64,000 nt of DNA from Escherichia coli. Its GTDB lineage: Bacteria; Pseudomonadota; Gammaproteobacteria; Enterobacterales; Enterobacteriaceae. Below the pieces are notes generated by a model. It had not been told where the DNA came from and ran no database searches. It saw only the letters and a program-made list of their open reading frames with translations. The translations under genes were made by a program, and so were the position numbers. This document shows, piece by piece, positions 40,763 to 62,038 of this stretch. Positions within the stretch are counted from its first letter, which is position 1, and each line of letters starts with the position of its first letter. The stretch is from the NCBI RefSeq assembly GCF_048403405.1, contig NZ_CP183129.1; one strand, written 5' to 3'.

Positions 40763-40863
40763 ATTTAATACAGCATCTATCGCCGGATGCGATGCTTTGC
40801 GAACGCAGCCTGAGCCTGCATATAAACTTGTCATTTCCTGATTTTGATATGCTCATACCAACA

Positions 40864-41151
40864 TCAGAAGAATGTTAAATTATGGATGACAAACCATTGC
40901 AGGCTCTGGCTAATCAACTCAAAACACCGGCTCAAGAAAGTCAGCATAATGGCTTCTTCTGACTGCAACAGGTGAAGAATAACCAGCCCCGCATTACCGG
41001 TATCCCCGTCAACCATCAGGGGCCCCAGCCTGACATCGCCTGAACATATTCCCCCACGCAACCTGCCGCACTGGCGTAGCCCACACAATAGGCGTTTCAG
41101 ACTGCTCAGTAACTGTAGTGGCGTTTCATCCGCCTGTAGCACCGGATGCAT
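40864..41151 (-). CDS. Hypothetical 95-aa protein, divergent from the LRR gene; possible truncated class I T3SS-chaperone-like protein
   Basis: ORF track entry. An in-frame TAA about 70 nt upstream prevents extension. The C-terminal half (DGDTGNAGLVILHLLQSEEAIMLTFLSRCFELISQSLQWF) loosely resembles SigE/CesT-type chaperone C-termini, from memory. The RBS is weak. Confidence 0.3.
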   Translation of the reverse strand: MHPVLQADETPLQLLSSLKRLLCGLRQCGRLRGGICSGDVRLGPLMVDGDTGNAGLVILHLLQSEEAIMLTFLSRCFELISQSLQWFVIHNLTFF

Positions 41152-41411
41152 GAGCGATTTCTTATAGTTATTCCTTTGCTTAATAACGATTATTTCCGGG
41201 TCGTTCGCTCTCGTATTTTCTTTAATACGTCAGAGCTGCCTGGGCCGTAATACAGCATGTACCAGACCCGACACGGCATTTCTGACCAAGGGAAAAAGTC
41301 AACGATGAGTCGTTATATCAGCGCAAATGACGTCCTGTGGCACCTTTGCGGTGACCACATTCACGTCTCCGGCGCTGCCAGAGGATATTTATTTCAAGGA
41401 TACGTAGCATT

Positions 41412-42758
41412 ATGGCCAGCATTAAAGACATCCGCCCATTCGCCCCCGGCATTCCCCCATCTTCCGTTAACCCAGGCGTACGCCCACCAGGGCAGTTCTT
41501 CCTGCCGGTGGAACTCAAGAATGAAATTTTGCGGAACATGAAGTATATCGGCCCGCAAATATTTAGCTGGGGTGATGACCACCGGCAGATCATTGACCTC
41601 AGTACCGCGGGCGAAGTGAAAATACATATGGTAGACAATACCATCATCACGTTGGAGCGCCTGAATCCGAATCCGCAACATAACGAGTTCATGATGGTCG
41701 CCGAATGGTGCCAATGGGCTATGGAGCGGGATGGTTTGCAAGAAAACCTGCAAAAAAACCTGTACGAAATCCTGGAAGAAAACCAGCAAAACAAACAGTC
41801 AGAAATTCCCCAAGAAGACCTGAAAGAAAGTCTGGAAGAAATCAAGGAAAATATCCTGGAAGAAAACCTGCCAGCAAGCCGGATTGAAAACCGGGCAGAA
41901 GCATTGCGCAGAATGAAGGAATGTCTCATTACAAGACGGAGTATGCTCAATCTTAGCAACCTGGGATTGACTTCACTCCCTGAAAATTTGCCTCCACATC
42001 TGATTGAATTTTACTGCAGTAAAAACGTGTTGACCGCGTTACCGAAGGTGATGCCAAAGTGGCTGCTGGTGCTTGACTGTACAGATAACATCTTGATCTT
42101 GTTACCGAAGGTGCAGCCCTCAAAACTGATGGTGCTGAATTGCTATGACAACTGTATTATCTGGCTGCCTGAGCTGTCGACTAACCTGAGAGTGATTAAC
42201 TGTTCTGAAAACTTCTTGCAATTTTTACCGCCGTCGATGCCCCAGTACCTGTATAAACTATCCTGTGCCGGCAACAATATTAACTCAATACCTGATGAGA
42301 TGCTGGAGAACTTGACTCGCCTGAAAGTATTTGACTGTTCTAGTAACGATTTGATCTCTGCACCACGGCGGCCGCCCAAACTAATCATATACTACTGTGG
42401 AGAAAACCAGTTTAAAACGGTACCGGTGCCGCAGCCCCGAAGCCTGAAGGTGTTTAGCTGTAATGGTAACCCGTGGGACAAAGACAATTTACCGACGCTG
42501 CTCAAAGCCGTCGAGGGCCTGAAAAACCAGGAGGGTCTGGAGGAGCTTTTGGACTTTTTGCACAAGGAGTGCCAGTTGAAGCTGGAGAAGCTGGAGAAGC
42601 TGGAGGATCTGGATGACCTTATGGTTCTGGAGCTCCTGGATGACCCGGTACTCCTGGAGCGCGTGAAGGTACAGGAGGACCTGGAGCTCCTGAATCAGCA
42701 GTTGGGCCTGTTGAATCTGGAAAGACAACAGGACTCGCAGCCAGTTAATCAACATTGA
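41412..42758 (+). CDS. LPX-type leucine-rich-repeat protein (YopM/IpaH-LRR-like), with no NEL or other catalytic domain
   Basis: 448-aa ORF with AAGGA upstream. Eight 20-21-aa repeats follow the pattern LxxLxCxxNxLxxLPxxxP, preceded by AEALRRMKECL...LNLSNLGLTSLPENLPPH. The ORF is followed by a hairpin and T-run. Confidence 0.8.
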   Translation: MASIKDIRPFAPGIPPSSVNPGVRPPGQFFLPVELKNEILRNMKYIGPQIFSWGDDHRQIIDLSTAGEVKIHMVDNTIITLERLNPNPQHNEFMMVAEWCQWAMERDGLQENLQKNLYEILEENQQNKQSEIPQEDLKESLEEIKENILEENLPASRIENRAEALRRMKECLITRRSMLNLSNLGLTSLPENLPPHLIEFYCSKNVLTALPKVMPKWLLVLDCTDNILILLPKVQPSKLMVLNCYDNCIIWLPELSTNLRVINCSENFLQFLPPSMPQYLYKLSCAGNNINSIPDEMLENLTRLKVFDCSSNDLISAPRRPPKLIIYYCGENQFKTVPVPQPRSLKVFSCNGNPWDKDNLPTLLKAVEGLKNQEGLEELLDFLHKECQLKLEKLEKLEDLDDLMVLELLDDPVLLERVKVQEDLELLNQQLGLLNLERQQDSQPVNQH

Positions 42759-42786
42759 ATCTGTTTGTAGAGTGTTGGCTTCAATG

Positions 42787-42822
42787 CCGCATTGTATCTG
42801 GTTTCTTTCTAATGCGGTTTTT
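42787..42822 (+). terminator. Candidate terminator of the LRR gene
   Basis: CCGCATT-(17 nt)-AATGCGG followed by TTTTT. The long loop makes it only moderate. Confidence 0.45.
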
Positions 42823-42823
42823 G

Positions 42824-42847
42824 ATTATGTACACCCTTATGTACACG
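42824..42847 (+). repeat. attL-like direct repeat of the integrative element
   Basis: ATTATGTACACCCTTATGTACACG matches 22 of 24 positions of 61637-61660, in the same orientation. Confidence 0.75.
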
Positions 42848-60314: not shown

Positions 60315-61579
60315 ATTTGCCTCCGGGCTTTATCGAATGGCGTTACGTTGTAGTCTTTCCCGCTTTCCAGTGCCACCAGCAGATCAGCCCACTGTGCCAG
60401 CGCAGCTTTACGCTCATCAAAATACTGATGGCGGTTATAAATCCCCTCCACACCCTTAATGCGATGATTGAGGCATCGTTCCGCTACGACAGGATCAACA
60501 CCCAATGCTGCTAAATGAGTACGTGCGGTACGCCGGAAGTCGTGAATCGTGAAATTAGGCACATCCGGCATTTCGGCGCGAACCTTAGCCAGTGCTACGG
60601 GTAAAGTGCTTTCCTGAATATGTGGGATCATTCTGTTTTGCATCTTCCTGGCTGGAAGCACCCATGCGCTATTACATGAAAAGGTGTGTAGCTCTCTCAA
60701 CCATTCAACGGCAGGAGAAGGTAGAGGTATATCAATAGGGTCTCCGTTTTTGCTGCGTTCTTCCGGCAAATGCCATACCGCACCATCTAAATCAAACTCT
60801 TCCCATCGTGCGGCGCATAACTCCATCTTACGAACGCATAGTGCCAGCAATAGCTTAAATGTCAGTTCGTTCTGGCGGCTGAATCCTTTTGCGGTGCGCA
60901 TAGCCTCGAATAGCCTGATAAGCTCATCGCGAGTTAGCCAACGGTCGCGGGAAACCTCTTTACCACCAGCATCAGATACTTCAAACGCTGAACAAGGGTT
61001 TATCTCCAGAGCGTGGCGTTTTATCCCATAGTCAAAGATACGGCGTGTCCAGCGTAATACATCTGTTGCTATCGTTGGTGCTCCTCGGTCAACGATACCT
61101 TTCAACATGTCGTCAATGTGGCGTGGCTTAACGTCCTCTACCTTCATATGCCCAATGCAGGGGTTAATATCCTTATCAATTCTCCGGCGAAGGATATCGG
61201 GATGTTTCCATCTCGGAAGTATCTGTCGCTCGAAGTATTCGGCGGCCAGATCTGAAACGCGCATGGCGTTTTTCTCAGCCTCCATTTTTGCCAGTGCTTC
61301 AGCTTTTCGTTCCTGTTTTTCTGCTGCTACGTCATAGCCAAGAGCAACTCTGGCTGACAGCTCTTTTGCTATTTCTCTGGCTTTTGATAGTGACAGTTCG
61401 GAGTAAGAGCCGATAACCATAGCCCGCTGTTTTCCTGCGAGCTTATATCGGAATCGCCAGAACGGGACTGTGTAGTTTTTGGGGTAGCAAATATAAAGGC
61501 CGTTGCCGTCTGCCTTGCCATCAAATCTGTCTCCCGCCTTTATCCATGCGCGGATCTGCATATCTGTGAGTTTTGGCAT
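60311..61579 (-). CDS. int: P4-type tyrosine integrase
   Basis: Trimmed to the ATG at 61579 (MPKLTDMQIRAWIKAGDRFDGKADGNGLYICYP...FWRFRYKLAGKQR...), giving 422 aa. The C-terminal catalytic region includes ...HDFRRTARTHLAALG...ERCLNH...GIYNRHQY. Confidence 0.9.
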   Translation of the reverse strand: MPKLTDMQIRAWIKAGDRFDGKADGNGLYICYPKNYTVPFWRFRYKLAGKQRAMVIGSYSELSLSKAREIAKELSARVALGYDVAAEKQERKAEALAKMEAEKNAMRVSDLAAEYFERQILPRWKHPDILRRRIDKDINPCIGHMKVEDVKPRHIDDMLKGIVDRGAPTIATDVLRWTRRIFDYGIKRHALEINPCSAFEVSDAGGKEVSRDRWLTRDELIRLFEAMRTAKGFSRQNELTFKLLLALCVRKMELCAARWEEFDLDGAVWHLPEERSKNGDPIDIPLPSPAVEWLRELHTFSCNSAWVLPARKMQNRMIPHIQESTLPVALAKVRAEMPDVPNFTIHDFRRTARTHLAALGVDPVVAERCLNHRIKGVEGIYNRHQYFDERKAALAQWADLLVALESGKDYNVTPFDKARRQM

Positions 61580-61636
61580 TGCGAATACCTGAATATCGAA
61601 TATGGGTGTGTACATAAAGCAATGTACATGAAAGTC

Positions 61637-61660
61637 ATTATGTACACCTCTATGTACACG
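61637..61660 (+). repeat. attR-like direct repeat, within a cluster of four TGTACA motifs (61606-61660)
   Basis: ATTATGTACACCTCTATGTACACG matches 22 of 24 positions of 42824-42847. It is preceded by gtgTGTACAtaaagcaaTGTACAtg. Confidence 0.75.
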
Positions 61661-61701
61661 CATATTGTGCGCTTTGTTGCGTCGTTATGATAGCTCATGA
61701 T

Positions 61702-61730
61702 AACAAAAAAGCCCGACATTTCGCGGGCTT
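61702..61730 (-). terminator. Intrinsic terminator (minus strand)
   Basis: The minus strand reads AAGCCCG-cgaaatgt-CGGGCTT followed by TTTTTTGT. Confidence 0.7.
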
Positions 61731-62002
61731 TATGGTTTTTTGCTGCTTGGTGATTTTTGCTGATAGCTTATTCGATATTCTGAACATGAACCCGAATCTG
61801 CATCAAGGGTGAAGCGTGATTTATCTGAAGTCGAGTTCGAGTCAACAATGAAACGTAAGCGTTTTATGTAGAACGCCTGTGCGGTGAACTCAGGTTCCGG
61901 GGAAATAGTGTCCATCATTTTAATGGACACTATCATGGGAAATGGCTCTGTCACATCAACAACTACAGTTGCTGACCAGCCGGATGGATGATTTTTTCGC
62001 AA
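61730..62002 (-). CDS. Doubtful 90-aa ORF (TTG start) between attR and dadX
   Basis: ORF track entry that ends at a good terminator. However, it has no RBS, and it contains a perfect 11-bp stem-loop (ATAGTGTCCAT-catttta-ATGGACACTAT, 61905-61933) and REP-like sequence at its 5' end. Confidence 0.2.
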   Translation of the reverse strand: MRKNHPSGWSATVVVDVTEPFPMIVSIKMMDTISPEPEFTAQAFYIKRLRFIVDSNSTSDKSRFTLDADSGSCSEYRISYQQKSPSSKKP

Positions 62003-62038
62003 CCAGAAGACGTTGCCTCCGATCCGGCTTACAACAAG

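Follow-up and report, generated by a model that had tools for sequence, protein, structure and literature searches.

The cvrA-dadX spacer and the borders of the insert

In the window analysed here, a stretch of 64,000 bp of Escherichia coli DNA (contig NZ_CP183129.1), the stop codon of cvrA (at 40762) and that of dadX on the minus strand (at 62039) are separated by 21,276 bp, as determined from the open reading frames (ORFs) of the window. The same spacer measures 385 bp in a K-12-type genome and 56 bp in a Nissle-type genome. An earlier, sequence-only reading of the window had noticed the approximately 21 kb between the two stop codons and had noted that this spacer is short in K-12. It had also interpreted the region as a nested insertion, in which a younger, integrase-bearing and satellite-like element of about 19 kb lies within an older islet that encodes a leucine-rich repeat (LRR) protein. 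All of this was confirmed. The region is organised as follows.

39026-40762, plus strand: cvrA, the 3' part of the K+/H+ antiporter gene; left chromosomal flank (ORF, annotated as cvrA in matching genomes)
40763-42756: left part of the older LRR islet, collinear with and 100% identical to strain GN02461 (locus L014), holding a 95-aa ORF and the LRR gene
40864-41151, minus strand: the 95-aa ORF of the islet
41412-42758, plus strand: truncated LRR gene of the YopM/SlrP/SspH/IpaH type, 448 aa versus 478 aa; the junction creates the stop codon
42757-61779: inserted satellite, 19,023 bp here and 19,025 bp if a missing CT dinucleotide is counted; 99.9% identical to the element of strain F719 (locus L002)
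61780-61871, plus strand: displaced 3' end of the LRR gene, its last 30 codons and stop codon; the end of the coding sequence in GN02461 maps to 61871
61872-62038: remainder of the spacer between the islet and dadX; K-12 also has the positions from 61798 onward
62039-63109, minus strand: dadX; right chromosomal flank (ORF and matching genomes)

Positions 40000-63000 of the window were used as the megablast query against a comparison set of 5,426 complete E. coli genomes. The matching genomes fell into those with a short spacer, those with a 2.75-kb LRR islet without the satellite, and F719, which carried 42743-61806 at 99.9% identity between dinD and yicC. Strains with the LRR islet but without the satellite, as well as strains with neither, had been predicted, and both kinds were present in the set. 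The islet itself was found in 837 of the 5,426 genomes (about 15%).

Genomes with only the LRR islet matched the window up to 42756 and then again from 61780, and contained no trace of 42757-42847 or 61637-61779. Removal of 42757-61779 from the window gave the 4.9-kb cvrA-dadX region of GN02461 with 0 mismatches, and an independent genome with only the islet (L001) had identical break points. The insertion is inside the LRR coding sequence, from which it removes 30 codons (478 aa in GN02461, 448 aa in the window).

These borders differ from those that had been proposed on the basis of a 24-bp direct repeat. The repeat, ATTATGTACACCYYTATGTACACG, is real: at up to 3 mismatches it occurs in the window only twice, at 42824-42847 and 61637-61660, and 100 shuffles gave 0 matches. 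The integrase start (61579) is 58 bp away from the right copy, which lies upstream of it in a cluster of four TGTACA motifs (61609, 61623, 61641 and 61653), as had been described. According to the sequence-only reading, the two copies are the left and right attachment sites (attL and attR) of an 18.8-kb element (42824-61660), which would have inserted directly after the terminator of the LRR gene, with 61661-62000 being islet DNA. The non-random occurrence of the repeat near both ends of the insert, with one copy next to the integrase promoter, agrees with that model. However, the islet-only genomes lack 42757-42847 and 61637-61779, and both repeats, along with the DNA out to the true core, are carried by the element at yicC as well as by circular attP forms. 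In addition, the synthetic empty-site junction that had been suggested for database searches (42760-42847 joined to 61661-61760) was absent from every cvrA-dadX locus; both of its halves were found in only three records, in the order of attP.

The actual borders of the insertion lie 67 bp further to the left and 119 bp further to the right than the repeats, and the att cores are located 61 bp outside the left copy and 107 bp outside the right copy. Instead of following the T-run of an LRR terminator, the insertion sits in the last 30 codons of the LRR coding sequence, and the hairpin with T-run at 42788-42822, which had been taken for that terminator, is DNA of the element. The islet did provide the target site, and the 95-aa ORF and the LRR gene are indeed older, but 61661-61779, which had been assigned to the islet, is part of the element. 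Comparative genomics thus places the true junctions elsewhere, a result that the sequence-only reading had itself listed as evidence against its model, and we regard this model as almost certainly wrong. Its statement that the target is not a tRNA gene was correct: a tRNA scan found no tRNA gene in the whole window, and neither the Rfam nor the tRNA scan gave a match inside 40763-62038.

The yicC home site and the attachment sites

The integrase gene of the element was found in 334 of the 5,426 genomes, and all six chromosomal relatives that were inspected (integrase genes 75-99.9% identical at the nucleotide level) were located between dinD and yicC, the F719 copy being one of them. To count occupied home sites, a probe consisting of 170 bp of the P arm of the element and 170 bp of yicC was used, with end-to-end coverage required. 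A junction of the P arm with yicC was present in 458 of the 5,426 genomes, and just 2 additional places were found in the entire collection, so that at least 99% of the copies with this P arm are at yicC. Phage-inducible chromosomal islands (PICIs) in yicC have been reported before, and off-target integration of related satellites has been documented and likened to the use of secondary sites by lambda (bioRxiv 10.1101/2022.07.18.500453). The copy in the window is very probably a rare off-target copy of this common, yicC-specific element, which the sequence-only reading had not recognised.

The attachment sites and the putative integrase (Int) sites in the window and in its relatives are listed below.

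42745-42763, plus strand: attL, hybrid core TTAATCAACATT--GAATCTG; the LRR pseudo-attB contributes the left half and attP the right half; CT is missing, which gives an overlap of TTGAA
61768-61788, plus strand: attR, hybrid core TTATTCGATATTCTGAA followed by CATG, that is TTATTCGATATTCTGAACATG; overlap TTCTGAA at 61778-61784
attB in the unoccupied yicC of K-12, in window orientation: GAG TTATTCGATGTTCTGAATCTG CTCGCGC
attP of siblings, in window orientation: TGATAGC TTATTCGATATTCTGAATCTG TTTGTAGAG
attL of F719: GAG TTATTCAATGTTCTGAATCTG TTTGTAGAG
attR of F719: GATAGC TTATTCGATATTCTGAATCTG CTCGCGC
Empty LRR site: CAG TTAATCAACATTCTGAACATG AACCCG
String across the attP junction: TGATAGCTTATTCGATATTCTGAATCTGTTTGTAGAG
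String of the restored LRR site: CAACATTCTGAACATG
42788-42822, plus strand: hairpin with T-run, P' arm; adjacent to dinD in F719 (L002) and within attP of L024 and L025
42824-42847, plus strand: left 24-bp repeat, P' arm; two GTACAC motifs 12 bp apart, candidate arm-type Int sites
61606-61660, plus strand: P-arm cluster of four GTAC-type motifs, including the right repeat (61637-61660); candidate Int sites overlapping the int promoter region
61705-61740: conserved GC hairpin with flanking A and T runs, invariant or with variation in the loop only in all relatives; terminator after the rebuilt yicC

The attP sequence was seen directly four times, in circular or tandem siblings and in one contig, and was exactly the sequence predicted. 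Public records include L024, a 19.2-kb 'phage' (phage_14408_2, NZ_LT599831.1), and L025, a circular 12.2-kb 'plasmid' (NZ_CP148430.1), both with an intact attP. In L026 (strain HB37, NZ_CP053080.1, 183924-224159) two copies form a head-to-tail tandem array at yicC, also with an intact attP. An IMG/VR contig of a more distant relative (L020) spans attP as well, and circles were thus observed for L024, L025 and L020. The circles and the tandem pair with intact attP in public assemblies show that the yicC satellite family excises.

The att core is 21 bp long. The attL and attR of the window are reciprocal hybrids, and the only block that attP and the LRR site have in common is ATTCTGAA (8 bp). 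Since this is the sole shared block, the exchange falls within these 8 bp, which hold the 7-bp overlap TTCTGAA. At the yicC home site, the block of identity between attP and attB is 11 bp, and the natural off-target event thereby narrows the crossover segment to 8 bp or less. The pseudo-attB in the LRR gene is identical to attB at 13 of the 21 core positions (26 of 42 overall) and matches attP exactly across the overlap; about 5 sites as similar to attB are expected per genome by chance. Co-transfer of yicC flanking DNA, considered in view of the match of F719 up to 61806, was rejected: beyond 61784 there is only a partial resemblance between pseudo-attB and attB. At the home site the core comprises the final four codons of yicC and its stop codon (...QNIE*), for which the version of the element is synonymous. 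Integration there leaves yicC intact and provides it with a terminator, the element hairpin at 61705-61740.

Neither of the 24-bp repeats is a crossover site; each consists of two GTACAC motifs, one pair lying in the P arm of attP and the other in the P' arm. In each attP seen, a cluster of four motifs is located 118-172 bp from the overlap on one side, and a pair of motifs 65-88 bp from it on the other side, with all arm motifs in direct orientation. The GTAC(A/C)C blocks form invariant columns in the alignments of both arms, with divergent spacers between them, in relatives whose integrase genes are down to 75% identical at the nucleotide level. Because the motif positions are kept in such diverged relatives, the repeats are most likely arm-type Int-binding sites, although this assignment is putative.

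Based on these results, we consider it very probable that a satellite of the yicC type has integrated off-target at a look-alike site in the LRR gene, and that the 24-bp repeats near its ends are internal sites for its integrase. In the normal route, attP would recombine with the almost identical 21-bp attB at the end of yicC, and the element would bring synonymous codons and a new terminator. Here, the circular element would have recombined with the look-alike TTAATCAACATTCTGAACATG, located in the LRR gene at 87 nt from its end. Crossing over within the shared ATTCTGAA would then have produced the hybrid attL and attR and the truncated LRR protein, while the N-terminal arm-binding domain of Int would bind the GTACAC motifs of the P arm (4) and the P' arm (2).

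Int need not have been involved if the element moved from a yicC-dinD locus by illegitimate or microhomology-mediated recombination, or by recombination after transduction. The identity at the junctions is only 8 bp, a length typical of microhomology, and the loss of 2 bp at attL looks non-conservative. Such a move is nevertheless highly unlikely: the two breaks are within one and the same 8-bp stretch of the att core, neither yicC nor dinD flanking DNA was carried along, the length of the insert is exactly one attP-to-attP unit, and the same 2-bp loss is found at regular yicC attL sites.

Several points weigh against site-specific integration into the LRR gene. Neither of the two junctions of the window was present in any of the 5,426 complete genomes, the attR junction pattern was absent from the contigs of GTDB species representatives and from JGI metagenome contigs, and an exact look-up of the truncated LRR protein gave no record; the off-target event is therefore known from one sequence only. 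For this copy, represented by one assembled sequence, no circle or restored site was seen, and the state of yicC in the source strain lies outside the window. The GTACAC motifs overlap the int promoter region and could alternatively, or additionally, be operator sites. Finally, a conservative exchange does not predict the loss of 2 bp in the overlap of attL.

The uniqueness of the configuration among the collections searched would also fit an assembly artefact, in which the yicC satellite was joined falsely into the cvrA-dadX region. A chimera of this kind needs two reciprocal false joins within 8 bp of identity, with precisely the polarity expected of site-specific recombination, and repeats as short as this do not mislead assemblers. 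We give this explanation very little credence and favour off-target integration by Int.

The missing dinucleotide at attL, where the overlap reads TTGAA (42755-42759) in place of TTCTGAA, is not restricted to the window. The same CT was lost in 9 of the 15 sibling attL sites examined (L009, L015-L019, L021, L023 and L026), or 10 of 16 with the window included, and the nine sibling sites without CT carry at least 4 different host-side core alleles. Five of the other sibling attL sites have retained CT and one has an 11-bp deletion. CT was present in all four attP sites, in all attR sites examined and in attB. A sequencing error or a one-off mutation was considered as the origin of the gap and rejected, as nine sibling attL sites carry an identical gap. 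The loss is a family trait and, being shared by 9 of the 15 sibling attL sites, no argument against Int.

The LRR site that was chosen is an exact 8-bp match to the CT-containing core, which implies that attP was intact when this copy integrated. The loss of CT therefore arises at or after integration, repeatedly and only at attL. Its cause is a matter of speculation. Int cleavage in the course of an abortive excision might damage the site and leave a scar, or selection might favour elements that are unable to leave, which would amount to a lock-in mechanism. The same loss at attR would shift the reading frame of yicC and might, equally speculatively, be removed by selection. Excision of the copy in the window is probably impaired.

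Gene content of the islet and the satellite

The older of the two layers is an islet encoding an LRR protein of the YopM/IpaH type. The protein matched the LRR domains of YopM, SlrP, SspH1/2 and IpaH in the PDB, with E values from 1e-27 (YopM) to approximately 1e-11 (IpaH), and Pfam LRR_4. Its repeats are of the LPX type of YopM, SlrP, SspH and IpaH, as in type III effectors, and a ubiquitin-ligase domain was not found in it. In the 385-bp spacer of K-12 (L004, 1063-1449), the LRR gene persists with its final 74 nt, and a fragment of 40812-40911 is present in inverted orientation. Given these remnants of the gene end and of the left end of the islet, the K-12 spacer is the scar of an islet deletion and does not represent the naive state.

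In strain HB6 (L006, NZ_CP040305.1, 1221-2434) an element of the IS3 family is present in the cvrA-dadX spacer, where it truncates cvrA. In view of this additional insertion, the spacer collects several kinds of insertions.

The younger layer is very probably a 19-kb satellite related to PICIs and P4; it carries an integrase, AlpA, Rha/AntA, an Icd-like protein, a DUF927 primase, a single-stranded DNA-binding protein (SSB) and cargo genes. From right to left, its features are:

60311-61579, minus strand: tyrosine integrase of 422 aa with Arm-DNA-bind_3 (PF13356, DUF4102), Phage_int_M (PF22022) and Phage_integrase (PF00589), all above cut-offs
55880-59192, minus strand: regulatory module with DUF4222, an 85-aa ORF, Icd-like, AntA, Rha and an AlpA-type helix-turn-helix (HTH) gene, and two small ORFs on the plus strand
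58974-59192, minus strand: AlpA-type HTH
58201-58899, minus strand: Rha
57465-58208, minus strand: AntA
56844-57041 and 57099-57296, plus strand: the two small, rightward ORFs
56435-56770, minus strand: Icd-like
53757-55883, minus strand: DUF927 primase/helicase, replication gene (Pfam DUF927, E = 2.5e-46; PHROG DNA primase, E = 2e-174)
51620-53546, minus strand: small satellite genes (68-aa ORF, frameshifted PerC, 138-aa ORF, ProQ/FinO-domain gene, SSB)
53124-53546, minus strand: SSB
52590-53087, minus strand: ProQ/FinO-domain gene
approximately 51961-52186, minus strand: frameshifted PerC gene
44016-51534, minus strand: cargo block of 7,519 bp with four intact genes; virion core/ejection module of a phiV10/epsilon15-like podovirus
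48902-51523, minus strand: cargo, SLT-domain protein of 873 aa
47203-48900, minus strand: cargo, 565-aa gene
44654-47206, minus strand: cargo, 850-aa gene
44091-44651, minus strand: cargo, 186-aa gene for a secreted-looking protein

The integrase gene is located at the right end of the element. Its product has the domain architecture known as 'P4-type' (arm domain, SAM-like domain, catalytic domain), a label that holds for the architecture only, because no phage integrase in the phage collection is more than 34% identical to the protein. All backbone genes, which also include a 216-aa ORF, point leftward, and int, AlpA and the DUF927 primase share the minus strand, as in PICIs of Gram-negative bacteria. 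Elements at yicC have the same backbone of int, AlpA, regulators and primase and are 12-19 kb in size. Compared to the F719 copy, the window copy is without a Bro-N gene (L002, 20710-21282), due to a 550-bp deletion between 23-bp direct repeats at approximately 57465-57487. At the left end, 42760-44015 (approximately 1.25 kb) contains no convincing gene and has a low G+C content (41-47%); this segment is 98% identical in sibling L013, but L003 has only the first 100 bp of it.

The scanned ORFs yielded no genes for capsid, portal, terminase, tail or lysis proteins, whereas three helper-type internal virion genes are present, which is atypical for PICIs. Likewise, the scanned ORFs gave no Pfam, PHROG or NCBIfam match to sid, psu or delta of P4. 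A role as defence island was considered and rejected, as PADLOC on ten ORFs (the LRR protein and nine proteins of the element, among them the large cargo proteins and the products of the 216-aa and 186-aa ORFs) gave one weak, partial match, to AntA. By its gene content the element fits the pattern of a Gram-negative PICI with P4-related regulatory genes, and it would be expected to depend on a helper phage.

The cargo proteins matched PHROG families of virion and internal proteins with E values near 1e-270. Over the entire 7,519 bp the block is 99.1% identical to an intact phiV10/epsilon15-like prophage (L012, 20001-27519), in which the corresponding block comes after a core gene of the T7 gp14 family; the codon differences comprise 45 synonymous and 17 nonsynonymous ones. 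The ends of the block are 93-97% identical to phiV10 itself, with a very different allele of the proteins in between: the SLT protein is 66% identical to its phiV10 counterpart over the N-terminal 235 aa only, and the 850-aa protein 23%.

The F719 element carries the same allele of the core module as the window. Sibling L013 (2395-10056), with a backbone that is 98-99.5% identical, has a third allele, which is highly diverged and bounded by identical break points (44093 and 51105), and siblings L003 (8487-11932), L024, L025 and L026 have P22-type ejection-protein genes in the cargo position, truncated in L025. The junction between the 68-aa gene and the SLT gene, which is specific to the satellite, was found in 44 genomes. 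Cassettes of ejection or core proteins thus appear to recur in this family and to be exchanged.

The association with a podovirus helper is circumstantial and derives from the 99.1% identity of the cargo to a phiV10-like prophage and from the episomal siblings. The distribution of alleles raises the possibility, which we put forward tentatively and consider rather doubtful, that yicC satellites routinely carry ejection or core genes of podovirus helpers as exchangeable cassettes. In the open-access literature we found nothing specific on satellites with ejection proteins or on satellites of phiV10 or other Uetakevirus phages. If the cargo genes were expressed and their products packaged, the satellite would bring along DNA-delivery proteins of its own or exchange them for those of the helper.

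Two further observations were made. Copies of the region of the 68-aa ORF (51595-51828) that are approximately 87-91% identical occur beside ClpP-protease/major-capsid fusion genes in other E. coli elements, and the region could serve the structural-gene modules of capsid-forming islands as a common leader. Far to the left of the insert, Rfam identified two rdlD antitoxin RNAs and the small RNA STnc490 at 4252-4317, 4788-4853 and 5682-5805 of the window; this is an ordinary ldr/rdl locus that has no relation to the insertion.

Implications and comparison with known systems

For the annotation of genomic islands, the present case illustrates that arm-type sites may take the form of direct repeats close to island ends and be mistaken for att cores. 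Here, this error shifted the borders by 67 and 119 bp, concealed the truncation of a gene and assigned a hairpin of the element to a host gene. The insertion also indicates that the integrase can disrupt an accessory, effector-like gene. The ejection cassettes and the 2-bp loss at attL could be informative on the use of podoviruses by satellites and on the fixation of integrated elements, respectively.

The closest relatives of the element are PICIs of the yicC type, with which it shares the int-AlpA-regulators-primase backbone, the integrase and both att arms (P arm at yicC in 458 of 5,426 genomes), and whose members occur as circles and in tandem arrays. It differs from these in its location outside yicC. 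In addition, it has a 7.5-kb helper-type core/ejection module, for which we found no description in PICIs.

With satellite P4 the element has in common the arm-binding (DUF4102-type) domain of the integrase, an AlpA-type regulator, an Icd-like protein, and an attP with repeated motifs in both arms. Furthermore, siblings carry proteins of the Ash family, and L009 is annotated with a primase of the P4 family. In contrast to P4, there were no matches to sid, psu or delta, the identity of the integrase to the phage integrases of the collection does not exceed 34%, and the target of the element in the window is a protein-coding gene and not a tRNA gene. The likely helpers are podoviruses, whereas the helper of P4 is P2.

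The event resembles the integration of lambda into secondary sites, and that of helper-embedded satellites off-target, in that there is a defined primary site, the att products are hybrids, and the alternative site, which is rarely used, is similar to the core and agrees fully with attP in the overlap. The difference is the target, in this case the 3' end of an accessory LRR gene that is truncated by the insertion. The putative arm sites, finally, are comparable to those in the attP of the lambda family (P1, P2 and P'1-3), which are also short direct repeats in both arms, at tens to approximately 170 bp from the core and at conserved positions; in both cases, Int has a separate arm-binding domain. 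The GTACAC motif and the 4 + 2 layout set the sites described here, as read from the sequence, apart from those of lambda.

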